Numbered from the stretch's first letter, positions 3,490 to 53,979 are shown. The stretch: 53,979 bases of DNA from Psammoneis japonica (GCA_008632985.1 QPGO01000126.1:186001-239979), one strand, 5' to 3'. Notes: a model not told the origin generated them from the sequence alone. Made by a program: numbers and translations.

Positions 3490-5700
3490 GAAGGTGACAC
3501 TTGTGTGGGTGTGTGGCCTGTGGCCAGCAATGCTCTCCACAGATGCAGAGACTCTCCAATGTGGAATTCGGCCAGGAGTGATCAATGGCGCACATGTCAG
3601 AGGGAACTGCTCATTGAGTTTTGAAAACACATCTTGTCAATTTTGATGTGGTCATGTCACAGAGACGCAGTGGGTGACACCACAGCAGAAGCTTGACAAC
3701 TGGAAATCTTGTTCACTTTTTCTCACTTTAAATTGCAGCTTTTCTTCATTTGATGTGATTCTTGTGGGTGTCTGCAACACACCACATCCTGCCAGGGAAA
3801 AACTTCCCCAAAAATGCACACAGAAAAAAACAAGTCACAATCAAAGTTGAGTGAGCTGCAGCTGTGCCAGAACTTTGTACAAGAAGCAACAACAAGGACA
3901 GCATCAACATGCTGAGCAAACATTTCCACCTTTGTCATGCCATTGCAATCATCATTTGGGGCTCTTGCGGCGGCAGTTGTCTGATCGTGAAAAGTGCTCA
4001 AACATGGTGCAATGCCAAAGCACAATGACTCAATGTGTTTGTCATGGGGGGCACCATGCAAACCTTTTTGTTCTTGTTTTCACATGTTGCGGGCCCAATG
4101 CACCAACAGGCAATGGCTGCAGGCTGTCATGGCACAAGATGTTTTCTTTCTTCTGATCTGCACAACCCACAGACCTTCCAAGTTGAGACAGATGCACTGC
4201 AAACCATGACTCAATGTTGTCATGCAATGCTGCAAATGTGAGAGGACCCCTTTGCAAAGGCCTGCATGCATTTTTGTGTCTGCTGCAGAAATGCACAGCC
4301 TGTGTGGTGTGCAAAGCTGGCACAGCTTCTGCAACACAGGTTTGAAAAAAAACATTGCCAAAGCAATGCAGTGGCACGCTGTTTTGGGGCATTGCTCCAA
4401 TGGACTTTTTCCAACAAATGAGCCAATTGTGTTGTGTTGCTGCAACCTCACTTCCATGTTTCTTGAACTTGCCATGGGTCACACCCATGAAGGGCGTTTT
4501 CTGTGGCTCTAAATGACCACCGCCCATGTGCCCTGTGGCCAGCAGACTTACTCCAATGCACTGTTGAGCTGCAAAAACACGGGGACATGAACCAAGCCCA
4601 GGATGTTGACATTGTCCACAGTGAAATGGTGTCAGATCTCAGCATGTTGAGAGTTTTTTTTTTGTCAAATGGCTGGCGCCCATGCTCTTTTCCCAGTGCA
4701 TGGCAACCCAACTGTTTTGACAAATCACAGTGCCTGTCACCTTGAAACCTTCTTGTGCCTGCAGGAAAAGAGTCATGCCTGCAACATGAGCAGCACAGCA
4801 CTGTCCACTCCTGCTGCTTTGGCCTTGGTCAAATTCTGGCTGTTGATCTTCTGTTTGGCAGACATGTTTGTGGCAGGACACACGTGGCCCATTGATGCCA
4901 AAGCTTTGGCACAGCTCTTGCAACCAGAGTGCATGGCAAATGAAGCATCAACCCACCATGTGCAACCTTCATTGAGGATGTTTCCAACACAAACAGGAGG
5001 TCTGCTGTCTCTTTGAAATGAGCCAGACAATGACCAAGCTTCTTGCAGTCAACCATGCCAGATGGCTGCACCTGGGTTGCCAGGAATGACACCGTGAGTT
5101 CCAGATTGTGTCAGGTCCACTTGCTGAGAAATGAAAGCTTTGCCGCAAGGTGACAGAACAGCTCTGCCTTCCCCTTGTCCAGCTTCTTGACATTTCTGTG
5201 TGCGGTGCCACCACTTCACAAGGCACAAACACCTCAGAAGGCACTGCCACCACAGCTTCACCCACCCTCATCTTTTTTTCTTGCCAAAAAGACCTGAGTA
5301 CAAAATGTGAGCAGCTCAGCTGAGACCTCATGATCAAATGTTCCTGTTGGCAGCGACACTCTGGGCTGGCTGCACTCAAATTTGAGCACTGCTTGACATT
5401 CGAAGTGTCAAAACTGTTCTCCTGCCATCATCATTTGAATCACGTGACATCAAAACCTGCAATGACAACACATCCAGGGGGGGAATTGCAATTGCTTGTG
5501 ATGTTGATGCTCCAACTGTCATCATCACAGCAAAAAAAACCGGCGACAGACACTGTGAAGAGGCAAGCCACAAATCATCAGAAATTATCCTCTTGTTCAG
5601 CCAACAACAATCAACATGTCAAACAGTGACAGTGTTGAGCATCTGACTGTGCCAAGGCAAGCCATGACAACAAACCATCATGAGGCGCCATTGGAAGGAA
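3490..5700. repeat. TpA-depleted degenerate repeat block 1
   Basis: Manual count of about 6 TpA in 2.2 kb. CpG is also scarce, and the block is covered by overlapping Cys/His-rich, Tyr-free ORFs. Confidence 0.85.
4480..5330 (-). mobile_element. Ty1/Copia RT-RNase H remnant
   Basis: Frame-broken fragments SFLATQVQPSGMVDCKKLGHCLAHFKETADL and WWVDASFAMHSGCKS..SMG..SAKQKINSQNLTKAKAAGVD resemble Copia AVSFL..RV....DWKKL and WVDASFA.H.D.KSH..KQKIN.KSSTEAELVGVD. Confidence 0.75.
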
Positions 5701-5961
5701 GGAACATGGTGATGCGGCGGCAGTTGTCATTTTTCTGAAACGGAAATAAACCTGCGGATGATAGCGTCTGTCATGCGTTCTCGCTAAACAATTTCTCTCA
5801 GTGCAAACAGCGAACGACGAACCGAACGCAGAATAAGCACCAAAAACAACCAACAACAGCACTGACAACACCAACGTGCAATCTTGTCGTCTCGCACGAG
5901 TGCTTGTTCCCTGCTGCGCCTTAATCATTGATCAGATTGCAGGATCAGTTCACTTGCACTT

Positions 5962-7324: not shown

Positions 7325-10020
7325 GCCATTTCCCATGATTCCTTCACATCTAACTTTGAAGTTCCTGATCAAACACATCAAACAAACCATCAAAAGTGGC
7401 CATGATGTTGGCCGTGCTCTGGAATTGTTGGCACCTGGAGTAGAATGGCAAGACCATCTCCAGCAAGTGAACATGTGACACTTCAATGTCAAATGCTTCT
7501 GTGTCACTGACTTGCTCAATGGAGAGTAGCTCCACACTGGATGTTGTCCCACTGATGACATGCTGGGCAGTTGCTTCTCCATGCCTCTGGTGCAGTTCCA
7601 GCAACTGCAGGCCCACAACCCAAACCTCCCAAACAAAAGTTGTTTTAGATGGTGGGTTCAAATTGCTTTTTGTGTTTTCTCTGATGCAACATCACTTGTC
7701 CTTTTTGCAGTGTGTGTTGGATTTCCAGTGCAGGCAGCTGCAGCAAAACACAGGATTCTCTGACAACTTGTGTGAGTGCACTCTGGAAGCATGCACATTT
7801 GTGCCCCCAACCTGCAGAGCTGGCAAAATGTGTTCCACTTGGCAGGTCATGGTCCAAATCATTCAATCCATGGCCATGAAATTGAAGTGCTGTCATTGGT
7901 TTTGTGCACCTGCTCAAATGCTTCCAAAGCATCACACCAGTGCCCTCTGGCCATGAAGAAGTGCCTGGCATGTGCCACATTGTTCCAGACACTGACATGC
8001 CATTTAAAAAGGCAAAAAACATGGATTGAGAATTCTTTCAAATGACGACTTGGTTGACATCTTGCACAAGAATGCAGGCAGCCAAAGAGGCTGGCATTGA
8101 TTGCAAATCTGTGCAGCGGTTGTTGAAAAAACTGTGGCCTGAATGTCAAAGACCCCTGGCAGGCATGAACATGTGTGACAGAGGCATTTGCATGTGCTGC
8201 ATTGATGGTGCCACAGGAGCTCTCACTTGGCGGTTTTTGAAAGAATGGGTTGAAGTTGATCACATTGTCATGGCTGCTGTGGAAGTTTGCCCAATTGTTT
8301 CACTGACATTTGCTGGTGTTGATCTTGATGGTGTTGATGGTTCTCAGCAAAAATTGACTTTTTTTTTGTTTGGTGTTGTGCTCTTGGCTCACACTTGTTT
8401 TTGAAGTTTTTCACACAAAGTGCCTGCAGACCATCGCATTGCCAGGCACCAGGCATTAAAATTTGGGAGCTGGGCTCACAACCAGAAAAGGCTGCTTCGC
8501 CACAAAAATCTGCCAAAAAGAACATCTCATCCAAGCTGAGCTGCTGAAAAGAAAAACGTTTGGCTTCAACGCCATTGGAGTCATTTTTGCATTGTCTTTG
8601 GCATTTTTTGCACCCACACCAGGGTCAATCCAGCAGCAATGAGCTGGGCAATGTCCTCTGAGATGCAACCCCAATGAGATCAAGGCTGCAGTCTGGTGCC
8701 CTCATGTTTGCACACCCAGCATCAAGGAGAAAACCAAGCACAACCAGGAAAAACACCAACAAGTGCACAAGAGAATGACTGCAAAAGCTGTGGTGCTGGC
8801 AGTCACAAGCTGGCAGCACTTGCACACACTTTTCAACCTTTTTGACAGTGATGCAAACACAAGTGATCTCAACCCTGAGTGTGCTTGGGACTGGCCTTTT
8901 GCCAAAAATGTCACTCAGCGGCTCTTGTGTGACAGATTTTTGTTGGGGAGGGGGGGAGAGGCAACAACCACAAGGTGGGCAGAAAACATCACACTGGCCC
9001 AGTGTTGGCGGGCATCAGATGTGCCCCCCCCCCCTTGACAGATGTGGCACAAAAGCACACATCTCTGTCAATGGAGGGGGAGGAGGAGGCCTCAACAGTG
9101 GGCACAAGAACCTTGTTGTGATCCTGGGCATGCTGCTCTTTTCTCCCTCTCCTCAACACTGGCCTGGCACAGGGCTCCACGGTGCACCTCAGGCTGGGTG
9201 AAATCACACCACTGCTCTGCTTGGTTGTGAGACACCACCTGTCTCGGAAGATTTGGACTTCCCTTTGAAAATGCCACAAGAAAGCAATCAAAAGACTTTC
9301 AGAAAAGATGCCATCAGCTGCAGGCAGGGTGCCCAAGTTTTTGAGATGAAAGCTGTGGCTGGAAGAAGCTGTGCTCCCAAAGGTTGCAGGAGTGGCTCAG
9401 CCTCTGTGGCAGGCTGCAAGAGTTGCAACTGTTGCTCTGCTGCTGGCTAAAAACACACTCCTCTGGAGTGGCAGAGCAATGGACTCAAATGGTGCTGCTT
9501 GTGCAGACACTGCCAGCCGCAACCCACATGTGTGTTTGTTTTGTGATGTTCACAAGGCTGGCAGTGTGAGGAGGGGAAAGGAACAGCGCCCCATGCAAGG
9601 CAGCATCATGAAAAGTGGCTGTGGTTGTTGCAATGAGTTTGGCCCAAAAAGTCCATCAGAATTCTTTAACTGCAAAGATTGTTGAAGCCCATGCAGATGT
9701 GCAGCTGGCGAAATGAGCAGCGACAGGTGGGAGGAGAGGAGTTGAAGGACATGAGCGGCGGAATTTTGGACAGTGTTGCATCCAAGAGTTTGTGTGGCTC
9801 GCTGAGAAGGGGGGGCTGAGCGGCAAGAGCTGCCAAAGCGATCAGCAGAGTGGATGGGGAGGAGAGAGCACAGGAAAAGGCGTCAAAGGATGCGGTGGAG
9901 TGCTGCAAAGTGCTGGGGTTGGGCCAGGGGGGGCTTTCGGAAAAGTTTGCGGGAAACGGAGTTGTCTCGGCTTTGCAGCGCGCGTGTGCCAGCCAGACGC
10001 TCGGGACTCAGGAACTCGGG
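7325..10020. repeat. TpA-depleted degenerate repeat block 2 (family not recognised)
   Basis: TpA is nearly absent and TG/CA is in excess. No identifiable protein motif. Confidence 0.75.
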
Positions 10021-10221
10021 ACTGACGTACTTGGTGGAAGTTTCGAAGCGGAAGATCCAGATTTCGATTTTTTTGACACCACTCCGCCGTCACACTCCAT
10101 CCTGGAATCCATCATCCATCATCACCACACCCAACATCACCAAGTGATCAGCTCATCAATTCTGATCCAGAATAGGAAAAGCAAAAGGATCAGCCCGTGT
10201 ATCTGTGTGAGAACTATTAGG

Positions 10222-11406
10222 ATGCTCTTGACAAAAGAATTGCTGCTATCGCTTGTTGCTGTGACCATGACAAGTTGTGGAGTAACGGCCTGGCAATCGT
10301 TGGCAAGAACATCAATTCGTCCGCGCATCACGTCGTCGTCAATCGGCGTCAGTAGCGCTTCTTATTTGGATTCCTTGTCCTCGGGGACTTCTTCTTCCTA
10401 TGCACCACAGCAAAAGGTGATTAGTGACAGCATTGCGACAGCGGGTGGTGTCGACTACAATGCCGTCCGTCAGGAGCTCATGAGCATTATGGATAACCCT
10501 TCCTGGGATGATGGATCATTGGCACCCACTTTTATTCGACTGGCCTGGCACAGCAGTGGTACGTACGACAAGGCCTCGGGTACGGGCGGATCCAATGGTG
10601 CGGGTATGAGGTTCGCAACGGAGGCTGCCGATCCAGAGAATGCAGGATTGGAGGTGGCTCGTTCCTTCTTGGAATTTGTCAAACGTAAATTCCCCGCGGT
10701 ATCGTACTCGGATTTGTGGATCTTGGCAGCCTATGTTGGTATCGAATATACGGGCGGCCCAGTCATTCCCTTTACCCCAGGACGGACCGATCATCTGGAT
10801 GAGAGCTATTGGGTCCAAAGAGGCATGACCTATGGAAGGCTCCCAGCCGCTGAAAAGTATCTTTGCCCATACGTGGAAGGTACCTCTCAACTTTCCAATA
10901 GTCTTGATGCGGCCGGACGAGTCACGGGGTGGGAGGGCTTATGTAAACATGTCAAGGACGAGGTCTTTTATAGAATGGGGTTTAACGATCAAGAGATTGT
11001 CGCCTTGCTGTGCGGTGGGCACGTCTATGGCCGTTGTCACCCAAATTTCTCAGGATACGCGGGACCATGGGTAGAGCACCCCACACAGTTTTCCAATGAG
11101 TATGCAACAGATATGCTAGAAGACGAGTGGACGCTGGTGAGTCATGGTGATACATGGCTGGATGACCAAGGCGCTGCCGAACTACGGCCCGCACCTGGCA
11201 ATCGTCAATTTGTCAACAAAAAGCCCGGCAAGCTGGATGACGACGAGCCCAACCAAATGATGTTGGTCTCGGACATGATTTTGGCATGGGATCCGGCCTT
11301 GCGTACCCACTTGGAGACCTATGCGGCGGATGAAGCTCGACTAAAGGATGACTTTGGCAAAGCGTTCAAGAAACTAACGGAACTTGGTTGCGGGTTTGCG
11401 CCATGA
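10222..11406 (+). CDS. Class I heme peroxidase (ascorbate/cytochrome c peroxidase family), 394 aa, probably plastid-targeted
   Basis: Contains distal PTFIRLAWHSSGTYD, GGSNG, proximal GGHVYGRCH, SGYAGPW and MMLVSD. The N-terminus has a signal peptide ending VTA-W followed by a Ser/Thr/Arg-rich transit-like segment. Confidence 0.92.
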   Translation: MLLTKELLLSLVAVTMTSCGVTAWQSLARTSIRPRITSSSIGVSSASYLDSLSSGTSSSYAPQQKVISDSIATAGGVDYNAVRQELMSIMDNPSWDDGSLAPTFIRLAWHSSGTYDKASGTGGSNGAGMRFATEAADPENAGLEVARSFLEFVKRKFPAVSYSDLWILAAYVGIEYTGGPVIPFTPGRTDHLDESYWVQRGMTYGRLPAAEKYLCPYVEGTSQLSNSLDAAGRVTGWEGLCKHVKDEVFYRMGFNDQEIVALLCGGHVYGRCHPNFSGYAGPWVEHPTQFSNEYATDMLEDEWTLVSHGDTWLDDQGAAELRPAPGNRQFVNKKPGKLDDDEPNQMMLVSDMILAWDPALRTHLETYAADEARLKDDFGKAFKKLTELGCGFAP

Positions 11407-11510
11407 GCGGGCATAATAATTCGTTTCTGCAAAATTCCAGTTGTATTTAATTTCTACTCGTTAACGTAGCCTCCATCTACACTAGCAAATGTATATAGAA
11501 GTAGTACTCA

Positions 11511-11720
11511 CTACTGCTCATCTTGTTCAATATCCAGGGTACACTGTGGCAAGAGAGTATTTGTAGGGGCTTGCTCCAATATCTCATTCGTGGGGCAACA
11601 AATAATTGCGAAGCAAATGCACGACCAGAAACACGACTCACAATCGCACTCTAAAAAATCTAAAATGCATGTTTCTCGTGACTCGCAACTCAAGCAAAAG
11701 CACTTGATGCGGGAGAACAT
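11511..11720 (-). CDS. Possible 69-aa Cys-rich small protein
   Basis: ATG-initiated ORF with a Cys-rich hydrophobic stretch (CFWSCICFAIICCP) in TpA-normal DNA. No family recognised. Confidence 0.3.
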   Translation of the reverse strand: MFSRIKCFCLSCESRETCILDFLECDCESCFWSCICFAIICCPTNEILEQAPTNTLLPQCTLDIEQDEQ

Positions 11721-11938
11721 TGTTTTACAAAATTGGACGCCTCACAAAATAAGACGCAAATAATCTATCTTAGAGAAAAGGATATTTCAGTGCAGAACAA
11801 ATAAGAGAAGACAAAGGAATAAGCACATATCCCGTCCCACACCACAAGAGCAGGCACAGGTCTTCATCAAAGGTTTTCCGCCATCATACAAAACTAGACT
11901 GCACCAGAACTCAGAAGCAGTACAAGAACGACATCAAC

Positions 11939-12181
11939 ATGGGCTGCTCGAAAGAAACTCTAAGAATCATTGCCGCCGTTATCATCTTAGCAATCATCAT
12001 AATTGCTTTAATTATCATGATGGAAGCGGAAGCGCTGGGAGACCGAGAAGAAAACTTTGGGGCGTACATTGCGGTAGGTATCGTTGGTGCAATTCTAGCA
12101 TTCTGTGTCTGTACTTATATTTGCCCAAAAGGCGATGCTACACGATGGCATCCACAAACACTCAACCTGGGACCTCTGTAG
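11939..12181 (+). CDS. 80-aa two-TM membrane protein (family member 3)
   Basis: MGCSK..EAEALGDREENFGAYIAVG..CVCTYICPK aligns with the protein at 2946-3230. Confidence 0.7.
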   Translation: MGCSKETLRIIAAVIILAIIIIALIIMMEAEALGDREENFGAYIAVGIVGAILAFCVCTYICPKGDATRWHPQTLNLGPL

Positions 12182-12394
12182 CTACATATCAACTTCGTCC
12201 TAAATTGCTGGATCGGAGACGACGCAGGGAGCAAATCGCACATGGGTGAGGATGATAATATGGCGAAACAAAAATTATTTCTTTCTAAGTGTCTAATCAA
12301 AAGTTTTCTATTCGAAAACAGCAGTCCTTCCAATCAAAGTCCTTCAAAGACGTTCTTGCTTGGTGCCCGCAATCTTCAATTTCTATTCTCAATT

Positions 12395-12790
12395 TTAATC
12401 CTCTAATTGTACTTGTTTCCCAAAACTGAAATCTGATTCTGGACTTGTCCATGACAGTGACTTGGACCACTCTGATGATGAATGAGAGTTTAATGGTTCT
12501 GCTCCAACAAAGTCGTTTTCGGGCGATGTAAAACTTATGGTCTTGGACCATTGTTCTGGTTCCTGAAGGTTACTTCGTCGTTTGGCTTCTTGAAGAAAGA
12601 GCTTTTGCGACCATTCCGGTCTGTAATGGTAAATGGCTCCGTGGTTGAAATCTGATTCGGGGCCCGCATAGGACATGGTGCCGGACCAATGCCAAGAAGT
12701 TGTTGACATCATCATTGCTGCTTGACGCAACATCAGGTTGTTACTCAGCATTGTTCTTGATTGAGCGAATCGTTGTAATAGTAGTGTCAT
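12395..12790 (-). CDS. 131-aa protein with three WS-x-x-h-S-aromatic-x-x-PE-x-DF repeats and a mitochondrial-type presequence
   Basis: Repeats are WSGTMSYAGPESDF, WSKTISFTSPENDF and WSKSLSWTSPESDF. The N-terminus is Arg/Ser/Leu-rich and has no acidic residues. Confidence 0.7.
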   Translation of the reverse strand: MTLLLQRFAQSRTMLSNNLMLRQAAMMMSTTSWHWSGTMSYAGPESDFNHGAIYHYRPEWSQKLFLQEAKRRSNLQEPEQWSKTISFTSPENDFVGAEPLNSHSSSEWSKSLSWTSPESDFSFGKQVQLED

Positions 12791-13139
12791 TTTGTTATTC
12801 TCTGTTGTTTCAATGAGAAGACTTGTTTTTGGCGATAATGTTCTTGTTTTTTGCGTTGGATGTGGAATTTGTGAGAAGGATTTTTGCAATGGCATTTCTC
12901 GAGTCTTTTTAGTGTGGCGCACGAATGATGCAGATTATTGGGGTTCGCATCCGTGTCAGTCGGATATCAATTATTGGTACAAAACCTACGTAAATCGTCG
13001 TATGTAATATCTTGTGTAGGGACATACGAGTTGAAGAATTCTGCAAGAATGCATCTGGAACACAAAAGAAGCTCGCCAAGAGGTTGGCGCGAACGAAATG
13101 CCTTCTCGTTTTGAATGGTCGCGGGCCTCGTCAAGCTAA

Positions 13140-15360
13140 AAACGTCACCTCCAATGGTGGCAAGCTCATCTTGGCATCTTTGACAGTTCCGCCAACTTGA
13201 GTGTTGCCACAATGAAAGACTTTGATGCCACCAATGTCAGCCAGCAGTGGCCTGGTGCATCATTGAGACTTGACCTTTGACCATCACCAAAAGCGCCTTT
13301 TCAAGTGGCTTCACCCGCCAGCAAAATGCCGCTGACAGCCCATCCCTTGGTTTGTCAAGACCATGCTTGCAGGCAACAATGGCCACAACTGAGTCTCTCG
13401 ACCTTGGTTTTGCCACTTTCTTTTTTCCCTTTGGCACTTGTGTTTTTTCAACTTGAAGGCACAAACAACAAACAGTGCGCACTCTCGTCATTTTTTTGTG
13501 AGGTGCTTTCTTGTTGAAAGAGGAGTTGAGGCAGTGGCGCTGCAACTTGGCCTTTCACCATTCTCAAAATCCAAACTTGCCATTTCTTAAATGACATGAT
13601 CTGCCAACAGAAGCCTTCCCTGTCTGCTTCTGTGTGCCACTTTGTTCATCATCGGCAACGGGCTGACCCTTCTTCCTCCTCTGCGAGCGTGGCCTCAGCT
13701 CAAAAGGCAGCAGCAGTTTTGATTGCAGCTGTTTGCCACCCAACTGTGTCATCCTGACCCATTGCTGCTAAAAGTGTGACAGCATCAATGCAGAGAGCCT
13801 CTTCTCCTCTCGAGACCAAGTTGACGAGGCAAACCCAGCGCGCGAGTGGCGCCAAGCAAAGTGCAAGCCAAAGAGTTTGGCTCGCTGGCAATCTCCTTCA
13901 GCTTTCTCATGTCTGCCATGCTTGGCCACCACTTCACCCCATCTGCATTGCAGTTCACTGCAACAGAGTCAAAGTTGCTGCCACACAAAGCTCGGAAGTT
14001 TTCATCACATTGTCGGGCAACAAAAAAATGACATCAAGCAATGAAGCAGCGGCTTGATCTTGGCTGGCCTCCTGTCAAGACTTTGAGCTGGATGAAATCT
14101 GGAGTCAAACCAAAGCACACAAGGTGGGGGCTTTCAAGCCATTTTCACTGGACATCAACAGCACCCCTCTTTGTCACAAGGGCACCAGTCAAAGCTGAGA
14201 GTTTGACGAATTTAGCATGCCTGACATTTCTGCAGCAAAAGCTGCAAAGGCTCAATCCATGTAAAACTGACATGTCATCTTTTGGAACAAGAGCCCATCA
14301 ATTCATGGGCAAATGCCTGCATGTGCTGCCCAAAACCTCTCAAGCTTTCTGCTCAATGGGTCCAGAAGATCACCCCATGGCACAAGTCCTTTGATGTCCA
14401 AGAAAAATGGAGCAATGTGTTGCAATTTTTGTGGGCTCCATTGTTCCATGGTGAGCCTCCTCTGGTGCCAAAAAAAGATTGCAAATGCCCTCAATTGATC
14501 AAACCCCTGATGCCAAAGCTCCTCGTCACACAACGTGGCCACACACTGGTTTGTCTGAAGGGCATTTTGAGCACAGATGTGTTCTAGTCCCAGGTGACAC
14601 ACTCTCATGTGCGCAAAGGTTTTGAATGTAAAATGCTCAAGTGGATGGGCTTCTGCAGGCATTTAGAGTGTGAACACACAAACAGTTTTTTTGTTGGCAT
14701 TCAATTCCTCATGGGAGATGCACCACAAACTCCCTCTGCTGCAGACTCAACATTGATTGTGCGACAGCACATTGAATGCAGATTTTCAGTTGCAGGCATG
14801 ACACCTGCCAGAAGGTCTTGCAGAAAAATCATTTAATTTGACATTCAAATGACGGCCGAAAATCATCCGTTGTGTTGCGATTCGTTTGTCGCAATGTAAA
14901 ACATGGACAGCACAAAAACAATGATGTTGCAACACTGACGCGCAAGCCTTGTCAGTGTTGCAAAACATGCAATTTTGTGTGAATCTATACTTTTGGTGGT
15001 GAAAGCTTGTTCACAAGTGAGAAACCACGCAAAAATCATGCAAATGTCATTTTTGTGCACGATTTGGGTCATGTGCGGCTGGAACACGTCCACAACATCA
15101 TGTGGAACATCACCAAAAAAGCTTTTTTGGCAGTTCAAAGCATGAAAATTTAGCAAGAAACTGGCAAGTGTCCATGACAGAAAAGAAGTGCACTCAATTG
15201 AGGCACACACCACCGATTCGCTGATGCACTCGAGCAGTGCACAAAAGCTCGACACAGATGGGTTGACAGGTTCGGCGTGTGTGTGAAGTGAGTCTGTGCT
15301 GGAAATGGCTGCAGTGGAAAAGGAGACACAAACCAGCATTCTCCTCTTGGTCGTGATGGT
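13140..15360. repeat. TpA-depleted degenerate repeat block 3 (family not recognised)
   Basis: Few TpA and dense Cys/His-rich spurious ORFs between two normal genes. Confidence 0.7.
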
Positions 15361-15746
15361 GTCTCGTAGTGGAAATTGGTTGACATTGTAGCACCACTGA
15401 GGGCAGCGATTTTTTGTCGCGGTCGTTCTTTTCGTCCCGTAAAGGCACTCGAAAAGTGAGACCGAAGTTGCTCAAAACAGACCCGAATGTGGCTGACGTC
15501 AACATGTGAGGACGTGGCGCATTTTCTGTCCGATGGTGAAGCATTTTTTTTTTTCAAAACAAGAAACAGCGAAGGCCACTGTATTAGTCAGAAACCAACT
15601 CAGAAATGGGATGCCTTCACGAAAGCGTGTGCGATTCCTTGATGCCTCTCTCTCTCGTCTCTCTTCGGGCATGAAGAATCCGTCTATTCCTTCACAACTC
15701 CAACTACGAGGTAAGAGAAGTTGACAGAACCGATGGAACTGAAAAG

Positions 15747-17291: not shown

Positions 17292-18142
17292 AAATTTTCA
17301 CAGCAAGAACGAAATAAACCAACTTTGATAACCTTTTGCAGTCACAATTGCGAGAAACTTTTTACTTTGTTTATTCAAAAATGCTTGCTCCACAACTTGT
17401 GAGTCCTGCCGTTTGTCTCATTTTCTTCACCACGTTTGATCCAGTCGCGAAGAGAAGCGCGAAACCTACTGAGTGAGGTAAAGTGGGTATCTTTCGAAGT
17501 GAACATTTCCACGATCATATAGAAGACATTTTGTATATGTAGATAGACTATCGGCGTCAACTTATTCTGCGAGATTGAATTAAGAGACAAAAGCGGGTGC
17601 AAGCAGGATTCTAGTTTTTGATCGTTTAGCAGACTAAAAGTTGTAGTTCTGGCGTCTCTATTACCAATAAAGCTAATCCTTGGTGAATTGATAACCTGAC
17701 GATATTGAGACGTTATGGACAATTCCTTCAATGTTCATAGAGTTAGAAGAAACGAATGCGCTTTGTCAGATAAAGATACCGTGTTGGCCTTACGGTGCAC
17801 TCTCACTCTCTCTTCTGTCTCTAGGGACACACATTTACTCCACCGTAAAAATGATTTCCAACTACTGTATTGAAGGGTAGTAGAAAGGGCGACCTATGGT
17901 AACTATGGTGCCATGTACCAAACTTCCTGTCTGTAAAGAGCAATAATAAAACAGACTTCGAGGATGATAGACTGTACTGTATGGCAAATTCTCTTCAATG
18001 CCTACTACTCACCGGTAGAAGGCAATAATGTTACGCCTTGCACATTACACTACTTCTAATCAAATCCTAATAATTACAATATCCATGCCCAACCATCTAC
18101 AATACCAACCGAATTCCATCTCACCCATCACTCATTCATAAC

Positions 18143-41276: not shown

Positions 41277-42433
41277 GGTTGCGCGGGAAAAAAATCAAAA
41301 TCCCACACAGAGCACTGGCATGTGGTCTGTGGTGGTTGTGATGATCACAAGTCGAGTGAGAAAAATGGCTGTGACAAAGATGACAATTTCAATGGAGAAA
41401 CGTCGCCAACTCACACAGTGAACGTTGCAACGCAGTTCTTGCATTGAGAAAGATGAGCAGCGCACTGCTGCTCACAACCTCACGGACTGTCGGTGTTGGG
41501 ACGATCTAGCTGACATCTAGGACAGATGAAAATTGTGCACTAAAAGAGAAAGAAAGTGAGCAAAGGAGAGATTGTCGGATCTCTCTGTGCTGTCCATGCC
41601 AGTCTGTCCGACACAAGGGAGTGCACTCCCCATCTCGGATGTCTTTTTGCACACATGTCACCAGTCTGACTCAATGTTTTCAATGGGCACACCAACGGAT
41701 GAAGAGTGGGGTGAAGGTTAAGGCCTCCACATGGGCATGCTTTGGCATTGCTTGTGACATGAAAAATGTCCCAACATCACACAAGAGAGAGTGGGCTGGG
41801 CGAGGCAAGAAGCGCAGCACACTTCAGAAGCTGTGACACAAAACACATTGAACATCTTCAGTGAGCAGGTGCATGGGTGGAAACAAGAAAATCCAGAAAG
41901 AACTCACCATGGCAACATTGTCAATGATTTGGATGTCACCCGGTGGGGCCCTGCTTTTGCAGCAATCGCATCACCAGTCAAGGCACGTGCAGCCGTTTGT
42001 GCGGTGCGCATGCTGGCAACCAAAGTCCCCCAGAAAACCAAACCAATGCATCAACATCTTCATGACAATAGTTGAAAAAAAACACCACATGAAAAATGCA
42101 TCGACTTCATGACATGTGCCATGGCATGACACATCATACTGTCACACAACATCCCGTTTTTAAAATGCCAGAGCGGGAATGTTTGTTGTCAGTCGAGTTA
42201 TTCGATTCCCGTACTTCAGTCACGGACATCGAAAGATTTCGCTCTCACAACTTCCCCCCGAACGACCGGAAGATCGCGCAGAATACCGTAGAAGGAGGCC
42301 GCTGATAGATACGGTATCCATCCAGGTAGCAACGCACGCAGGATATCTCGAAGTTCCCGATCTTTTTTTGTTCTGCGATCAACACCGTCACTCTTCGCAC
42401 AGTCAAAGAACATCAAAACAAGCACATCAGAGG

Positions 42434-43569: not shown

Positions 43570-45350
43570 TGATGTTGTGGATGAAAAACACATGGACCAA
43601 CAGCTCAAACATTTTGTTGTTTGTGTGAAAACAAAAAGTGGCCGGGTGGGTGCTCCAAGCACAAACAAGCCCGCGCATTTGCAAAATAAAAATGGCCCCT
43701 TTTCCTGTTGGCAATCGCATTGCACACTTGCCACCTGCTAACAACTTTTCTGCAGCACACAAAGTCGCGCCTTGGGGGGGGGGGGCTGGAGCACAGCATT
43801 GACACATGGAAAATTTAAAATGGTGGTCAGCCATAAAAAAAGCTGTGCCACTCTGCTGAGGCAGTTTTTGTTGCCACAACAGTTGACAGAGTGATTGAGC
43901 TGGAGGTGGCGATGCTGTTGTCAGTTGTTGGCACGGACAACTGAACAATGCCCAACACATGCAGGAGAGTCACAACATGGTTGAGAGTGCAACTTTGACA
44001 GCCAAAATGAAGTTGTTGCCAAAAAACAGAGTTGAGGCAATGCACAACCCAAACAAGAACCAAAATTTGCAGATGTGCTCTGGCCCCAGGCGGGGCTCCA
44101 TGTGACGTGACCCAACACAAAACTCTGCATGCAAGCTCTTCAGTTTGTGCGCTGGCTGGCCAATGCACCAGCTGTTGTTTTTAACACCCAAGCAAGTGAG
44201 GCACATCAATTTGGTGCCTCTCAGCACACAGAGCTTTTGAAAATCCACCTGCACCAGCAGACTCTTCAGATGCCAAAAGAACAAGCAGTGCCAGCCACGC
44301 CAGAGCTGCGAACCACACATTTAAAAATTGTTTTCTGGGGCAGAGCTGCCAAACACTTTGGTGGAAACAGACATGCTTCAATGACCAAACCTCCCCTTCA
44401 AACCCAATCCTTTGATCAAACCCTTTTTCCTTTTTTCTTGCCCCAGTTTTTGCATCTGAAAGACACTTGGTTTGACCGCCTTGCTTTGCATGAAAAACTG
44501 AAAAAAACATTTTGTGTGTGGGGCTGTCACGCAAATTCCACACAGTGAAAAACTTGCCAAGTGCACACAAATTCTCTGAGAGTGCATTTGGGAAAGCAAG
44601 TGGTCAAACCACCAAATTCCTCAGATGTGAGAATGGAAAATGGGTGCACAAGCAAAGAAGACGGCTTGGTCAGAAGAGTGGGCTTCAAGAGGAGATGTGG
44701 TTGTGCAAGTGCATCCACACACCAAGTTGTTTGACTGCTCTGCCCCAGAATTTCTTTTTGGCATGCTGTGATGTGGCGGGGCTGCATGTGGCTCTGCGGA
44801 GCCCAAGAGCACTGCCCGTTGCTTCATGTGGGGGGCACACAAAACATCAAAAAGTTGCTCAACAGGGCACTGCAAACATGCCATGGGGTCTTGACAACAG
44901 CAGCTGCAAATGGACAAATTCAATGGATCTTTGGATGACCCAACTCAACCAGCATGCTCTGTCTTCCATGTGTGTTTGTGTGGGCACCGAGCAAGAAGAA
45001 ATTTGGCACTCCGACGGTGCACACAACAAGAAGATTTGACAAGAGCACACCTTGTGCATGGTGATGTGACACAGGCACAAAGTTGTGGAGAGGCTTTGCC
45101 ATGTGCTCTGCAGGCCAAGCCCTGAGTTGACAATCAAAAAGTGAGCCCAAACAACCCGAAATGATGGCGGGCACTCTCCTGTCTCAGCCAGCACCAGTGG
45201 GGAAGAAGTCCCAAGCTTGAAAGAGAGCTGTCACACATTGTTTGCCAATGGGTGAAGGAAGAAGCAGCAAAAAAGAGTTGCAACATGACAGGATGACGGG
45301 TGATGCTGGGGTGGCACAAAGCATTTTGCTGGTGGCAGAGGAAGTGATCA
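43570..45350. repeat. TpA-depleted repeat block 6, including a decayed end of the GACGCG-TIR MITE near 44080-44140
   Basis: Few TpA. The stretch gccccaggcggggctccatgtgacgtgaccc..aactctgcatgcaagctc resembles the MITE end at 24845-24900. Confidence 0.7.
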
Positions 45351-45635
45351 ATCTACGAGGATTGATTGATTGCATGCGCGCGTCATGTCATCCGTCTGTC
45401 GAAGAGGTTTGTCTGTCACACACTCGTCTACGTCTGATGTCCGATTTCAAAAAAGAACAAGTCCCAACAGGTGGTGACGTCGTGAGTCGTGAATTGATTC
45501 GTGACTTCGTGCGTGAATCATCATCAGCACTTACTCGTGAATGCACTGGCGGGTACCGGGGACTCGCCTCACATACAGGCTCACAATTCTTCAAAACAAC
45601 GAACCGTTGTTCTCCACCCGAACGAAACAAACGAC

Positions 45636-46230: not shown

Positions 46231-46260
46231 GTAGTAATGTAGTAGTAGTAGTAGTAGTAA
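46231..46260. repeat. (GTA)n microsatellite
   Basis: gtagtaatgtagtagtagtagtagtagta. Confidence 0.8.
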
Positions 46261-46757
46261 TATTTGGCATTCACACATCAGGGGTGAACACACTGAAGCT
46301 TTCGCCAAAATTGAAGTCGCATTTCGTAGACAGTTCAGTAAAAGTATACCTTGTTTCATCGTGAAAAAGAAAAGATCATAGTCATCGCAGCTGAAGGGAA
46401 ATGGGAAATGCTGTTGTCGCCACACAACTGTACAAGCCTGTCACATTATACCTTTTTTCGAGGAAACTTGATGTATCTAGAATTATCAAAGAAAAAGAAC
46501 TGGACAATGGCTAGACCAAAAAAAAACGTTGGCCATCAAACGTATTTTGAATGCCTATATGCCTTTTTAGAGTAAACGTGGACAAGCATTGCTACTCGTG
46601 AATATGGACGTACGGTGTAAAGCATATCACGAGAAGTTGAATCAGTCGGTGCTAAACTGAGTCTCGATTAAATGAACGAGCCATCAACTACCGTCATACC
46701 TCAGGCTCCATTCCGCACAACCATATATTCTCAAAAACGGGCAATGCCCAACATTCT

Positions 46758-47495
46758 TTAGCCTGTAAACCACGGTTCATCATCGACTGGTTTTGGATTT
46801 TCCTTGGGAAGCCACGGTTCATTGGGTGTGCCCCCACTAAAGAATTCACGAAAGTTCCGTTTTCGTTCTTCCACAATGCGTCGTTCCCTTTGTTCTTCAA
46901 TCGTCTCTTGTTTTTCAACTTTCTTCTTGTCCGCGGGTCGCATGGTTTCTGGATTGTACACTACATTTTTGAATTCGGCATCCCAATCAATTTCTTCTTC
47001 TTCTTCTTCTACTTTTTGATTGAGTGTCAATCGTTGCGCCGTGCTGATGCAGGTCCACGCTTCCGTCACATCGCCCTTGCACGCTTCGAGCGCCCACGCG
47101 GCATCTTTGACATGGCAATTGGTTTTTACCACCAGAGTTTGGACTTTGCGATCCGTTTGCTCGAAATAACAGTCGACACCACTCTCTAACGAACGCGACA
47201 ATTGCGGCAAGTATCCGTTTTTCTCCGTGCCGTCGGGTTGCATTTCAAACAAACGAATCGATGAAGAAGGAATTGATTCTTCATCATCAACAGAGTCATT
47301 CTCATTCTCGTTAGTATTTTGTTTCCGAGGTCGTGGTGGAAGCGGTTCGTCGTAAAGACCCATGAGCGGCACCTTCTTGTTGTTGTGCAGAGCACCCCGC
47401 GCGTTTCTGACAAGAGTCCCAACGACAAAAGCAGAGCTGGAACCTGCTAAACTGACACCAGCGCACATCATACAACTCACAGTTAAAGTCCTCAT
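46758..47495 (-). CDS. 245-aa plastid-targeted protein with a UBA/EF-Ts-N-like helical motif
   Basis: Signal peptide ending SSSA-FVV (ASAF-type). VQTLVVKTNCHVKDAAWALEACKGDVTEAW resembles UBA-like three-helix bundles. Confidence 0.75.
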   Translation of the reverse strand: MRTLTVSCMMCAGVSLAGSSSAFVVGTLVRNARGALHNNKKVPLMGLYDEPLPPRPRKQNTNENENDSVDDEESIPSSSIRLFEMQPDGTEKNGYLPQLSRSLESGVDCYFEQTDRKVQTLVVKTNCHVKDAAWALEACKGDVTEAWTCISTAQRLTLNQKVEEEEEEIDWDAEFKNVVYNPETMRPADKKKVEKQETIEEQRERRIVEERKRNFREFFSGGTPNEPWLPKENPKPVDDEPWFTG

Positions 47496-48050
47496 GATGC
47501 TGTTCAAGGAAAAGAAAAGATAAGAGATCCCACAAGCAGAGCGTAACAGCAACAGAAGCAACGCACATTCAACATCGTCTTTTCGAAATTTTCTGGTTTC
47601 CCACTTTCTCACGAGGTCTTTTTTCTGGAACTCGCGAGGGAGGCAACGTGGCGCGCGAGAAGAGGTGAGTCAAAGCCGATAGAATTCCGATGACGTAGAA
47701 ATACGTAGAAAGTGCACTGAAACGGCCGTCGACAAACCAACTCAGCTACTCCGACCCTCACTTTTGTTCTGTTGAACTAAACTTCGCGAGTTTTGTTGGC
47801 AGAATTATCTGTTGTATACTGTTGTGTTGTTGGTGTCGTTATATGAGAGTGATGGCGACATATGATTCAACGTAAGATTGCAGTTGTGGCTGTTGATGAG
47901 CCATGTGTTGGTTGCTCTGATTTCTCTGATACAATCATCGATACAATCAGTGCTTCACGTTGTTGTTCTGTTGCATAACGGCTCATCCTTACGTTTCTGT
48001 TCTGTAAATTCCAATGCGCTGCTTTTCAAAAGAATATATAGCGCAACATC

Positions 48051-50186: not shown

Positions 50187-51384
50187 CTAGCAAAATTGTA
50201 ACGACTTCCCATTGTCAGTTACAACGTATGTGTACAACAGCGGCACTGGATTTCGAACTTGTTTGCTGTTTTCATGATCCCAAATGGGACCAAGTTGATC
50301 TTCTTCCACCGCAACTTCACCATTGTCGGCTCCAATTTCAACTAGTTTTTCATACAGCGCTTCATCGTAGTCTACCTGTTCTACAGGTAAAACTTCAATC
50401 TGGTGCTGGACCGCAAGCAACTTTTGCACAATGGCAGAGATTGTTTTCTTGTCCTGCGGCATCTCATCCCACGAACCCTCGCGTTCGGCATTAGCAAACG
50501 CCTTGGCTGATTCAATGTGCTCTTCCGTGACGTCGTCGTCACATCTGCGACGAAAACGGTGTTCTGCCATGGTCCACTGGGATTCCGATCCTAGAGACGA
50601 ATGGTTAAAGACCACGGAAAGCACACCGTCGTCCCCTGGGACGATGCGGCATTTGCCTGATGGTGATGCTTGCCTCTGGCATTGGGACCATGACAGTGAG
50701 GCTCATACGGCTTTTTAGCACAGTCCAAAAACATGTGAAAGGACTCTTGCCTGCTCTTTGCCGGATACAATCGACGATGAAACCTTTGTCGCCTGGAAAG
50801 AACGGTGTCCAGGGATTCCAGTCAGCACGACCCACAAAGTAGAATTCATTCGGATCAATGAACGGATTCACGCCTTGTCCTTCATCATGTTGGATGACTG
50901 GTGGCTTCTTGACAACGGGCACTTCGTCTGCACCTTGACCTCCCAACATTGTGGTGATGCACCGTGCATGACAGCCTCTACAAAACACCTTGCGTGGCTG
51001 GTTGTGGGGTGTTTTGTTGGCCTCAAGCCGCGTGGAACGGCATTTCTGCCTTTCCATCGCTGCAGTGCTGCAGCTCAAACCAGGCACAGCTTCTGACATT
51101 TCTGCCTTGACCTTGATCTTGGCTGGTGCAGGGATGTCTTCTTGTTCGTCATCTTGCGCTGGAGATTGCGAAACAACAGGAGCAGGTGCAATCCCCGCAT
51201 CCTCGTTTTCGGCCTTGACAGGAGTGATGATGCTGGCGTTGTCGTCGCCTTCTTGTTTCGTTTCAGATTTCACGGCTGCCGCTGCGGGGTGTTGTCTGCA
51301 GTGGAGAGATGCATCGTGTTCGTTTTCGTGGCGGTAGCTCGTCGAGAACATTTTCTCATTGAACCACCTCTTCGTTTCCGTCAC
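50187..51384 (-). pseudogene. Frameshifted hypothetical gene, 3' end TpA-normal and 5' part TpA-depleted
   Basis: ORFs 50605-51384 and 50187-50624 read as parts of one acidic protein. Tyr is kept mainly in the distal part. Confidence 0.45.
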
Positions 51385-53979
51385 TCCATTTTACCGTGCA
51401 TGAAACTTCGTCTTGGGCCACCAGAGCCACCGGGAAATGCTCGACGGCATCATCCTGTCTGGCCCAGACATTGCGCGGCACTGCTGCGGATGTCATGATG
51501 CTTCGCTGATGTGCTCTTGCTCTTTCGAAGAATGAAAATTCACAACATTGAACATGATCAATGATTGCAGCACCGGCGAGACGATCATTGGACACAGGGA
51601 AGATTCAAGATGTTGGAGCTCGCACAAACGCTTTCAGTTGATCAAATGGGGGACTGCTGCAGAGCCTGGTGTGAATTTGCGCACATGCTTCACCGTGTTG
51701 TAAAATTGACAGCACGACGAAAGCACGGTGGAAAGCCACAACTGCTTCTGACCACATTTGACAATTGGAAGAATGCTCTGCACAATGACAGTTGTCCTTT
51801 GACATGTCTGACAACAAGTTGCGCTCTGGCAGTTCGATGTCGGAACAGAAGTCATTCGTCGACCACAGCTCTGTAAAGCATCGCTAGATAATTGCCAGCG
51901 ATTTGTGCTGCAATTTGGCGAGTGATTTCCCGTGCTTCACCGTGGTGAACTTGTGAATTGTCCAAAACAGTCCTTTTAACAAATTTCGGAACGAAAGTTT
52001 CTGTGTGCATGAGAAAAATGCATCTGGGACAAGCTGGGTAACGTCACTTTCCTTCCAAACATCATTTGGACGTTCTCCGCCACTTGCCTTTGTCATCGTG
52101 CTTTCACCACGTGATTTTGATTTACAACACGGTGAAGCACGGTGCGTAGAATTCTACGCTCTTTGAGCACCGCAGTCCCCCACTTGCCCGATTTCGAAAA
52201 ACTGAAAGCGTTTTTTATGAAAAAGATCGCGGCGATCTTTTCAGTGCATGCAGCGAGAAATGCTGGGACGGGCAAAGTTCCACCCGGGGGTTGAGAAGAC
52301 AGACACTCCAACACACACAGATCAACATCGGCTGTCGTCTCGCGTCTGCTTTTTCGGCACGATCATGGCACGATGATGGTTGCTTGCGGCATGTCATTTG
52401 CTCTCATGCTGATTGCCTTGGTTGCTGATTCTGCCATTGCAAGGGACTTTGCGATTCCTCAGATGTCCGCAAGCAATTTTTTGGTGGAACATGGTTTTCA
52501 TTTCCCATCTCACGATTCTCACGAGAGTCTTTTGTCTGAAACTTGGCACTGAAGCTGGCAATCAGCACCGGCGAAGCAAACCGAGGAGCCTTGGAGCCAC
52601 ACTTGAAATGGGAAGCGAGCAAATCAAGTGGAGAACTCGATTTAGAGGCATGCCATTGTGGGATGCGTTTCAATCTTGCTTTGTTCTTTCGCCGCGCTCA
52701 CTTTTTTCACACTTTCGTTTGCAGGCCGGTTTGGATGTTCGCGTTGAAAACTTTGAAACCATGCCATGCAGTGTTTGGGGGAGAACAAAACGATTGTCGT
52801 CGCCTTCTTGTTTCGTTTCAGATTTCACGGCCACCGCTGCGGGTGTTGTCTGCAGTGGAGAGATGCGTCGTGTTCGTTTTCGTGGCGGCAGCTCGTCGAG
52901 AACATTTTCTCATTGAACCACCTCTTCGTTTCCGTCACTCCATTTCACCGTGCATGAAACTTCGTCTTGGGCCACCAGAACCGCCGGGAAATGCTCGACG
53001 GCATCATCCTGTCTGGCCCAGACATTGCGCGGCACTGCTGCGGATGTCATGATGCTTCGCTGATGTGCTCTTGCTCTTTCGAAGAATGAAAATTCACAAC
53101 ATTGAACATGATCAATGATTGCAGCACCGGCGAGATGATCATCAGACACAGGGAAGATTCAAGATGTTGGAGCTCGCATGAACGCTTTCAGTTGATCAAA
53201 TGGGGGACTGCTGTAGAACCTGGTATGAATTTACGTACATGCTTCACCGTGTCACAAAATTGACAGCACGACGAAAGCACGGTGGAAAGCCACAACTGCT
53301 TCTGACCACATTTGACAATTGGAAGAATGCTCCACATGATGACAGTTGTCCTTTGACATGTCTGACAACAAGTTACGCTCTAGCAGTTCGATGTCGGAAT
53401 AGAAGTCATTCGTTGATTACAGCTCTATAAAGCATCGCTAGACAATTGCCAGCGATTTGCGCGGCAATTTGGCGAGCAATTTCCCGTGCTTCACCGTGGT
53501 GAACTTGTGAATTGTCCAAAACAGTCCTTTTAACAAATTTCGGAACGAAAGTTTCTATATACATGAGAAAAATGTATCTAGGACAAGCTAGATAACGTTA
53601 CTTTCCTTCCAAATGTCATTTGGACGTTCTCCGCCACTTGCCTTTGTCATCGTGCTTTCACCACGTGATTTTGATTTACAACACGGTGAAGCACGGTGCG
53701 TAGAATTCTACGCTCTTTGAGTACCGCAGTCCCCCACTTGCCCGATTTCGAAAAACTGAAAGCGTTTTTTATGAAAAAGATCGCGGCGATCTTTTCAGTG
53801 CATGCAGCGAGAAATACTGGGACGGGCAAAGTTCCACCCGGGGGTTGAGAAGACAGACACTCCAACACACACAGATCAACATCGGCTATCGTCTCGCGTC
53901 TACTTTTTCGGCACGATCATGGCACGATGATGGTTGCTTGCGGCATGTTATTTGCTCTTTTACTGATTGCCTTGGTTAC
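51239..53979. repeat. Tandem duplication, period about 1554 bp (51239 to about 52425 vs 52794 to the window end)
   Basis: ORF pairs 51356/52910 and 52093/53647 are offset by exactly 1554 bp. The copies differ mostly at TpA. Confidence 0.93.

Follow-up and report, generated by a model that had tools for sequence, protein, structure and literature searches.

Hypermutation restricted to the dinucleotide TpA has been described in the chlorarachniophyte Bigelowiella natans, where, according to the main text of a 2026 preprint, 231 of the 302 nuclear single-nucleotide mutations of mutation-accumulation lines fell in two integrated viral regions (nucleocytoplasmic large DNA virus, NCLDV, or virophage), nearly all being A-to-G or T-to-C changes, all of these at TpA, and arising at about 1000 times the background rate (Mettrop et al., bioRxiv 10.64898/2026.01.13.699255). 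The same text reports 124 clusters of 1-kb windows depleted in TpA and enriched in CpA and TpG, as well as an enrichment of reverse transcriptase and DDE domains among TpA-poor coding sequences, and proposes an ADAT2-like DNA deaminase while leaving the enzyme unknown; neither the word "CpG" nor the word "diatom" occurs in it (10.64898/2026.01.13.699255). Here we describe blocks of TpA-depleted DNA in a stretch of 53,979 nucleotides from Psammoneis japonica (GCA_008632985.1, QPGO01000126.1:186001-239979; hereafter the window, with positions counted from its first letter). The process that shaped these blocks is probably the same as the TpA hypermutation of B. natans, in another organism and saturated on transposons; a process known from a single preprint thereby gains a further, much more pervasive case and new mechanistic constraints. 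In our literature search that preprint was the only description of TpA hypermutation found, and none was found for diatoms. A first-pass annotation of this DNA had regarded the process as new, a claim superseded by the account of B. natans given in the preprint's main text (10.64898/2026.01.13.699255).

Other known systems also invite comparison. Fungal RIP (repeat-induced point mutation) is likewise a hypermutation by transitions at a specific dinucleotide, which puts mobile DNA permanently out of action in tracts with sharp borders. However, RIP makes TpA from CpA, whereas the blocks of the window have a TpA/ApT ratio of 0.091 and a (CpA+TpG)/(ApC+GpT) ratio of 1.80, and RIP is triggered by duplication and creates stop codons, neither of which applies here. 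APOBEC3 and ADAR offer a parallel as deaminase-driven hypermutation of mobile elements serving defence; they are strand-biased and act on cDNA or RNA of retroelements only, whereas in the window both strands and DNA-type repeats are affected, after integration.

We delimited TA-poor segments in the window with a sliding dinucleotide count followed by segmentation, and 300 dinucleotide-preserving simulations of the window served as the chance control. Eleven segments were obtained (about eight when neighbours are merged; Table 1), together covering 53% of the window, with observed/expected (O/E) ratios of 0.04-0.12 for TpA and of 1.3-2.0 for TpG and CpA. The blocks hold 143 TA in 28,359 nt (O/E 0.08) where about 1,050 would be expected, compared with 1,026 in 25,579 nt outside (0.57), where TA accounts for 4.0% of dinucleotides (for B. 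natans the preprint's main text has 6.0%). As many as 65 of 214 500-nt windows contain two TA or fewer (simulated mean 0.24, maximum 2), and the longest TA-free run extends over 1,343 nt, the simulated maximum being 604 nt. Block borders are sharp, for instance at 13025|13137, 24370|24849, 37544|38794 and 44322|45354. The block-wise loss of TpA is real and lies far beyond chance. The first-pass annotation had noted about seven sharply bounded blocks, with only some six TA in 3490-5700 and with genes and normal intergenic DNA retaining TpA; segmentation and dinucleotide counts bear this out, and exactly six TA are found in that interval.

In eight of the eleven segments CpG is depleted as well (O/E 0.19-0.59), while in the remaining three (25551-27200, 29001-30400 and 50401-53200) it is normal (0.90-1.05). 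When the blocks are set against the O/E values outside them, TA is lower by 906 and CG by 815, TG higher by 739 and CA by 777, so that the losses of TA and CG roughly account for the gains of TG and CA. Decay of 5-methylcytosine (5mC) would explain the CpG loss in the eight segments and part of the excess of TpG and CpA. It cannot remove TpA, however, and it is about 27 times slower here (see below); the loss of TA is the larger one and is present also where CpG is normal. The earlier view that the process is the opposite of RIP and is not accounted for by 5mC decay agrees with both the reversed block indices and the loss of TA from segments with normal CpG.

The direction of the change could be established from repeats. 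A Ty3/gypsy long terminal repeat (LTR) retrotransposon occupies 25192-30577 (+), with 162-bp LTRs of the form TG..CA (25192-25353 and 30416-30577), a polypurine tract preceding the 3' LTR, a perfect 5-bp target duplication (CAGCA, 25187-25191 and 30578-30582) and gag-pol frames at 25670-30303, in which Pfam recognizes reverse transcriptase, RNase H and integrase domains within 27859-30303. Its LTRs, compared over 25192-25354 and 30416-30578, differ at ten positions, all ten being TA versus TG (six) or CA (four), and all ten TAs stand in the 5' LTR. Among the 54 mismatched positions of the long direct repeat (Table 1), 42 lie at TA-derived sites (26 with TA versus TG or CA, and 16 at eight sites with TG versus CA), five are of CpG type and seven are other differences; two of the 54 are transversions. 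The first-pass statement that such pairs differ only at TA, TG or CA thus holds for the LTRs, and its "only" is too strong for the second pair.

The Ty3 insertion has split a MITE-like element (miniature inverted-repeat transposable element; named R) of about 390 bp with terminal inverted repeats of about 25 bp, which lies at 24834-25191 (+) with its right end at 30583-30614, is flanked by CACA on both sides, belongs to a very abundant family and is not TA-depleted. Mutated copies are found at 31538-31890 (inverted) and at 23060-23456 (partial). The 49 mismatches between 24839-25191 and the inverted copy comprise 19 of TA type, eight at TG-versus-CA sites, nine of CpG type, 11 transversions and two others, and at all 19 sites the split element reads TA where the inverted copy reads TG or CA. 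At five sites the three copies of this element read TA, TG and CA, which requires independent hits on a TA ancestor. The palindrome shows the same polarity, its left arm having TA, and its right arm TG or CA, at all ten TA-type differences.

We also compared the pol frame with 150 library homologues, as a guide to polarity at the protein level. Tyrosine makes up 1.0% of the frame (homologue median 3.5%), cysteine 4.4% (1.7%) and histidine 4.4% (2.9%). At the 11 columns where at least 60% of homologues have tyrosine, the frame has five tyrosines, three cysteines, one histidine and two phenylalanines; conserved glycine (18/18), arginine (21/21), tryptophan (6/6) and asparagine (9/9) residues are all retained. 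At columns conserved in at least 50% of the homologues the frame has 73 mismatches, of which 30 require a transversion, 21 several steps and 22 a single transition, and these 22 consist of 15 TpA losses, one CpG loss and six others. Other genomic copies, evaluated at 40 of 323 variant places, point the same way: the window has TG or CA where the copies have TA at 12 places and CG at 13, with the reverse at three (TA) and one (CG), in addition to five other transitions and six transversions. These comparisons show, at the level of sequence, that TA is the ancestral state and that the change runs from TA to TG or CA after insertion. The first-pass annotation had allowed that the source elements might themselves lack TpA; repeat pairs, protein outgroups and other copies all have TA as ancestral.

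The same data bear on whether the blocks could be explained by selection against UpA and CpG in transcripts, of the kind seen in many RNA viruses, or by a TA-poor donor. Joint suppression of TpA and CpG with an excess of TpG and CpA is a classic signature of viruses, and the blocks share it. Nevertheless, the depletion is extreme (O/E 0.04-0.12), it has cost the element conserved tyrosines of its catalytic domains, it differs between the LTRs of one insertion and between copies of one repeat, and it affects dead non-coding remains; we therefore give this explanation very little credence.

The rate was estimated from the 1,185-bp direct repeat with a simple model of independent TA loss in each copy. 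In this repeat, eight TA sites are kept in both copies, 26 are lost in one and eight read TG versus CA, while 70 CpG are kept and five lost in one copy, and seven other mismatches occur in 950 other sites. The per-copy probability of TA loss is 0.62, and the model predicts 10.6 TG-versus-CA sites where eight are seen. Per base pair, the rates are 0.48 at TpA, 0.018 at CpG and 0.0037 elsewhere, so that in this young pair TpA changes at about 130 times the background and about 27 times the CpG rate. Since the TpA process is faster than CpG decay, young elements have lost TA and not CpG.

The 108 TA sites that could be polarised comprise 48 changed to TG, 30 changed to CA and 30 kept. On the edited strand, changes affect 33 of 61 TAC, 22 of 50 TAT, 14 of 59 TAA and nine of 46 TAG; a pyrimidine 3' of the A is preferred over a purine (odds ratio 3.5, p=3e-5), TAY being edited about twice as often as TAR (Y, pyrimidine; R, purine), and RTAY sites are lost in 24 of 24 cases. 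Conversely, the TAs surviving in blocks are biased towards TAR (odds ratio 0.41, p=7e-12). Polymerase eta makes A-to-G errors at WA motifs (W, A or T), and error-prone repair or translesion synthesis by a polymerase of this kind in heterochromatin, a candidate of the first-pass annotation, would have the right type of error to its credit. However, A-G differences at ApA are rare (2 of the 54 long-pair mismatches, against 42 at TA-derived sites), from which the motif is TA and not WA; moreover, RTAY sites are completely lost, and polymerase error could hardly bring about a rate some 130 times the background or an almost complete saturation (O/E 0.04). We judge this route very unlikely.

A thymine immediately 5' of the edited adenine is what a TadA/ADAT-type enzyme requires, and the window is compatible with one, a compatibility that falls short of proof. 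TadA and ADAT2-ADAT3 convert A to inosine with a strong demand for T or U directly 5' of the target. The natural site of TadA is U-A-C, in agreement with the order TAC>TAT>TAA>TAG found here. These enzymes, on the other hand, act on RNA, in loops. In fungal mRNA editing by the ADAT-type Tad2-Tad3-Ame1 complex, the parts of the source consulted give a 22-233-fold preference for TA over other NA and the motif TTAGGA (PMC13431901), which has a G after the A where the window has a pyrimidine.

Concerning strands, the changes inferred from codons on the Ty3 sense strand are eight to TG and seven to CA, and those of the LTR six and four. TG and CA products are randomly interspersed along the copies (40 runs, 39.1 expected). 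As read from these products, the process is shown to hit both strands equally, site by site and without strand coordination. At lost CpGs (13 rows, inspected by eye) there is no preference for a 5' T, and so no sign of a single dual deaminase acting on both A and C.

Strand symmetry also bears on A-to-I editing of RNA by an ADAR- or ADAT-like enzyme, fixed by retrotransposition, or on editing of cDNA before integration. Such editing is suggested by the sole identifiable element being a retrotransposon and by the T before the edited A, a preference of RNA editors; cDNA-stage editing could in principle leave a clean 5' LTR and an edited 3' LTR. Yet the strands are hit equally both in pol and in the LTR, the LTRs of one insertion differ, and the same signature is present in MITE-like copies, in the direct repeat and in apparently single-copy blocks outside retroelements. 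ADAR prefers a 3' G, which is the least edited context here, again opposite to both ADAR and the fungal motif. Editing at the RNA or cDNA stage is, in our opinion, highly improbable. Pre-integration cDNA editing was also considered specifically as the cause of the clean 5' LTR and was rejected for want of a strand bias.

An event in the palindromic TpA step cannot be assigned to A or to T by sequence, and equal, uncoordinated hits on two strands would suit a duplex base-modifying enzyme. Both points are favourable to a route through thymine, in which the T of 5'-RTA-3' in silenced DNA is modified, for example by a TET/JBP-type enzyme (to 5-hydroxymethyluracil, 5hmU, 5-formyluracil, 5fU, or base J), mispairs with G and becomes C. 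In the telomere repeats of trypanosomes, base J sits at thymines that precede an A, and 5hmU of dinoflagellates is enriched at TpA. Known thymine modifications, however, have A as their main pairing partner, and their excision leads to mixed outcomes, whereas the changes here are almost pure transitions (10/10 in the LTRs, two transversions among 54 in the long pair). We regard the thymine route as unlikely.

As for what is targeted, duplication is not the trigger. The gene-internal 821-bp duplication (27 of 70 mismatches are transversions) and a further repeat family (41 of 94; Table 1) both have an ordinary spectrum. Furthermore, an 11,802-nt unitig with a word depth of 62.7, the single-copy level, covers 13001-14884 without a difference and, if colinear, reaches back to about 3083; block 13051-14884 thus appears unique at the 31-mer level, and 3451-5750 and 7401-10150 would be so by extension. 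Since blocks of single-copy depth are hit, while a 91.5%-identical duplication and another repeat family are untouched, the description "repeat-targeted" of the first-pass annotation is not supported.

Nor does time of residence alone decide. The nesting in 24834-30614 gives a relative order of age, with old TA- and CpG-poor DNA first, then the MITE-like element and then the Ty3 element, and yet the older MITE-like element is unmutated and the body of the younger Ty3 is mutated. TA depletion affects parts of the Ty3 body and of the 3' LTR, and not the 5' LTR. The left part of the MITE-like element, the 5' LTR and the leader form a spared island (24849-25543) with 49 TA (O/E 0.82) and a CpG O/E of 1.44, unsurpassed in the window, inside a 12-kb depleted region. 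The island implies that targeting is decided neither by time of residence nor by surroundings taken singly. It carries minority variants at 24938, 24952 and 24978, and its junctions are confirmed by the target duplication, for which reasons it is probably not a plain collapsed consensus. Its CpG-rich, unmethylated-looking composition would fit a domain kept free of silencing. Separately, the 1,439 records of run X3 (contigs of 47-154 nt) map almost only to this unmutated MITE-like copy, at 24885-25186, and X3 might be a small-RNA or amplicon library.

Taken as a whole, the signature is supported as a mutational loss of TpA to TpG or CpA that follows insertion and is confined to silenced mobile-type DNA. 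In comparison with B. natans, the changes are nearly all A:T to G:C at TpA (10/10 in the LTRs, 42/54 in the long pair), they affect bounded regions while host genes of the window keep an ordinary spectrum (mobile origin being shown for the Ty3 element and the MITE-like copies only), and loss of TpA is accompanied by gain of CpA and TpG, coding sequences of reverse transcriptase/DDE type included, at a rate far above background. The differences lie, as far as the preprint's main text goes, in the targets, giant-virus inserts there and here a Ty3/gypsy element, copies of the MITE-like element and old remains; in the degree of depletion, which is saturated here (O/E 0.04-0.12) as compared with a Rho of 0.45 for the B. 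natans NCLDV region; and in density, with about eight clusters in 54 kb (53% filled) as compared with 124 clusters in about 95 Mb. Blocks of the window also lose CpG, and their changes show a preference for a 3' pyrimidine and no strand runs. The rate in the window is a relative one, taken from repeat pairs (about 130-fold), whereas that of B. natans was observed de novo. Genes of B. natans are intron-rich, whereas frames of the window are long and intron-free. Together with the lower TA share outside the blocks and the greater density of clusters, this makes B. natans an unlikely source of the window.

That the sequence could be a sequencing or assembly artefact, by miscalling of modified bases in long reads or by collapse of repeats, is scarcely conceivable. 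A 41-N gap does sit at the palindrome centre, and the spared island does coincide with the most abundant repeat. Against this, unitigs of run X1, with an even word depth of about 60, match the TA-poor 13001-14884 and 15061-19909 with 0 and 1 differences, the island has its minority variants, a perfect target duplication bears out the points where Ty3 joins the MITE-like element, and two metagenome assemblies from different projects contain the same 4.5-kb TA-depleted element at 98.8% identity. The pattern, which the first-pass annotation had thought might vanish in an independent assembly, is in fact reproduced by short-read unitigs (X1 may be the assembly's own data) and by metagenome assemblies of another eukaryote.

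The metagenome loci were reached through the protein library. Three of the 150 homologues are nearly free of tyrosine, with 0, 0 and 2 residues in 699, 424 and 432 aa, and at conserved-tyrosine columns they have no tyrosine and mostly histidine or cysteine (9/10, 5/8 and 6/8); five ordinary homologues keep tyrosine at 7-13 of 10-16 such columns. By this composition, the three proteins (P0036, P0057 and P0067, Ty3 polymerase fragments) are evidently translations of TpA-hypermutated elements. Among 50 metagenome loci encoding relatives of one of them, two (L024 and L025) have the same blocks. TA O/E is 0.16 in L024; in L025, a block at 7501-13500 has TA of 0-0.26 in 11 of 12 500-nt windows (0.50 in 8501-9000) and CG of 0.13-0.61, is flanked by normal DNA with genes for methionine sulfoxide reductase and for a RUS-domain protein, and is followed by a second block from 20001. 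The two loci are saturated and so contribute little about recent events, their differences being eight of TA type among 51 TA sites, 15 of CpG type among 128, and 32 others. Surviving TAs are biased towards TAR in both (odds ratio 0.34, p=1e-10 in L025; 0.33, p=1e-4 in L024). Sequence resembling the window was found in nine other loci of the 50, within pol and at 67-75% nucleotide identity; L024 and L025 have no match to it, and so are not from the species of the window. No LTR pairs were found in the metagenome loci.

Nearly identical Ty3 elements without TA depletion (the pairs L001/L002, L008/L009 and L023/L026) still show TA versus TG or CA at about one third of their differences (11/34 and 11/35). 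The numbers are small, and either ordinary transition bias or the same process in a weak form may lie behind them.

As a mechanism, we propose that the blocks would be silenced mobile or foreign DNA, namely one Ty3/gypsy element, MITE-like copies and older unidentifiable remains, in which, after insertion, one T:A pair of the palindromic TpA step is converted to C:G, giving TpG or CpA. The agent may be a DNA adenine deaminase producing inosine, read as G, possibly of TadA/ADAT2 type, and its recruitment would depend on the chromatin or 5mC state of silenced elements and not on sequence duplication. The loss of CpG to TpG or CpA in older blocks would be slower, ordinary 5mC deamination in the same domains. 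Inactivation would proceed by missense, with tyrosine codons becoming cysteine or histidine codons, and presumably by erasure of TA-containing signals. Since the change of TA to TG or CA makes no new stop codon (TAA to TGA or CAA, TAG to TGG or CAG), long frames persist and tyrosine codons are lost.

Several points weigh against this proposal. For ten of the 11 segments, descent from a transposon cannot be demonstrated, and what speaks for coupling to 5mC or chromatin is solely that CpG is lost in the same blocks and is high in the island. The island itself, an older MITE-like element with 5' LTR and leader inside a depleted region, is a further difficulty. Run X1, possibly the assembly's own data, excludes an effect of the assembler and not everything else. 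A Pfam search of 200 open frames of the window (15+132+53) found no deaminase, in line with the first-pass remark that no candidate enzyme lies there. A-to-G is not separable by sequence from T-to-C on the other strand, so that modification of thymine would account for the data just as well; the favoured 3' neighbour, C or T, differs from that of the fungal ADAT motif TTAGGA; and equal, uncoordinated hits on two strands fit a duplex-acting enzyme better than the known single-strand deaminases.

Weighing these points, we hold the hypermutation phenomenon by itself to be highly probable. Its combination with an adenine deaminase recruited by the silenced state we consider probable, and the adenine deaminase step, taken singly, somewhat short of evenly balanced. 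More tentatively, and as one possibility, the agent could be a duplex-acting, TpA-specific DNA base editor (adenine deaminase or thymine modifier) of an uncharacterised kind that is recruited to 5mC-marked or heterochromatic mobile DNA and provides the main permanent disabling of transposons in this organism.

The occurrence of the same signature on ordinary transposons, in an apparently different lineage, together with two metagenome contigs and three tyrosine-free polymerases, turns a one-species oddity into what is possibly a general eukaryotic defence. If the base editor exists, having it here as well as in a chlorarachniophyte and an uncultured eukaryote of microbial mats would point to a widespread and possibly ancient eukaryotic defence pathway, parallel to RIP and 5mC. 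The enzyme is now constrained to act on both strands, without strand runs, at 5'-TAY-3', without a duplication trigger and in domains coincident with those of CpG decay. With more than one lineage known, it can be sought by presence/absence comparison, and, on the base editor reading, the 5'-TAY-3' rule combined with cross-lineage comparison would be a direct handle for finding it. In practical terms, dating by LTR divergence is badly wrong in genomes with TpA hypermutation, and mutated elements escape homology-based annotation of transposable elements, one of about eight blocks being recognisable. A screen for tyrosine-free matches to reverse transcriptase or integrase would be a cheap means of detecting affected genomes.

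By protein homology, only one block can be demonstrated to be a transposon, the Ty3/gypsy element. A tblastn search of the window with the 150 Ty3 homologues matched 25679-30342 only, and the 132 open frames of at least 90 aa inside blocks gave chance-level Pfam matches only, below curated cut-offs. TA-free DNA cannot hold TAA or TAG, which accounts for the many long stop-free frames in blocks, and gene finders would probably call false genes there. Stop-free frames without a family match include 39774-41294 (-, 507 aa), 20181-21017 (+) and 4045-4638 (-).

Table 1. TA-poor blocks, host-type frames and repeats of the window (values for TA, CG, TG and CA are O/E ratios)
Feature	Position	Strand	Remarks
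Block	3451-5750		TA- and CpG-depleted; 9 TA; TA 0.06, CG 0.19, TG 1.98, CA 1.82; no recognisable protein domain
Block	7401-10150		TA- and CpG-depleted; 8 TA; TA 0.05, CG 0.23; ends ~70-200 nt upstream of peroxidase start codon
Block	13051-16000		TA 0.12, CG 0.56; ends at start of FAD-monooxygenase gene
Block	19251-21250		TA 0.06, CG 0.40
Block	21451-24850		TA 0.09, CG 0.59; contains mutated palindrome arm and mutated partial MITE-like copy (23060-23456)
Block	25551-27200	+	5' part of Ty3 body; TA 0.12, CpG 0.90
Block	29001-30400	+	3' part of Ty3 body; TA 0.12, CpG 1.05
Block	30551-33150		7 TA; TA 0.04, CG 0.57; contains inverted mutated MITE-like copy (31538-31890) and the 1,343-nt TA-free run
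Block (largest)	37501-42150		15 TA in 4,650 nt; TA 0.05, CG 0.32; begins at 5' end of CobW gene
Block	43601-45500		TA 0.06, CG 0.33
Block	50401-53200		TA 0.12, CG 0.94; first copy of 1,185-bp direct repeat and start of second
Class I-like peroxidase	9820-11406	+	Host-type frame between blocks
FAD monooxygenase	15675-17291		Host-type frame between blocks
Succinate dehydrogenase Fe-S subunit (SDHB)	18143-18841	-	107-nt intron, spliced out in one contig of run X2
723-aa internally repeated protein	33603-35774	+	Host-type frame
CobW, two exons	36243-37166 + 37205-37585	-	Host-type frame
MFS fragment and several frames without family	between blocks		Host-type frames
Direct repeat, 1,185 bp	51239-52423 / 52794-53977	+	95.4% identical; used for rate estimate
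Palindrome arms	21292-21675 / 21717-22100		Flank 41-N gap
Gene-internal tandem duplication	33642-34462 / 34722-35542	+	91.5% identity over 821 bp; within 723-aa frame; no TA depletion
Repeat family	1712-2225 / 2697-3209 / 11913-12130		Not TA-depleted

Blocks stop about 50-200 nt upstream of host start codons. The frames of the window are uninterrupted over 421-723 aa and have few introns. Run X2 is RNA-like, one of its contigs omitting from the SDHB gene a GT..AG stretch of 107 nt; its coverage of the blocks in 13001-33000 is slight or nil and is uninformative on their expression. Scans of the window for tRNA genes and Rfam families gave no matches.

Next to the palindrome, a direct copy of 21252-21425 is found at 22104-22277, forming a zig-zag of repeats (21252-22277) in which only the leftmost copy retains TAs; either a foldback element or faulty assembly at a hairpin might lie behind this. 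The N-termini of the frames 46761-47669 (-) and 9820-11406 (+) show a signal peptide followed by an aromatic residue, a pattern that is typical of plastid targeting in ochrophytes; this is weak evidence, on which the diatom origin supposed in the first-pass annotation is plausible. The 723-aa protein is built of a twofold repeat of about 360 aa with Ser/Thr/Pro-rich linkers and a hydrophobic C-terminus; it belongs to no Pfam family and looks like a surface protein. Finally, a trinucleotide microsatellite in normal intergenic DNA (46232-46261) has TA every 3 nt, and TA-rich simple sequence thus survives outside the blocks.

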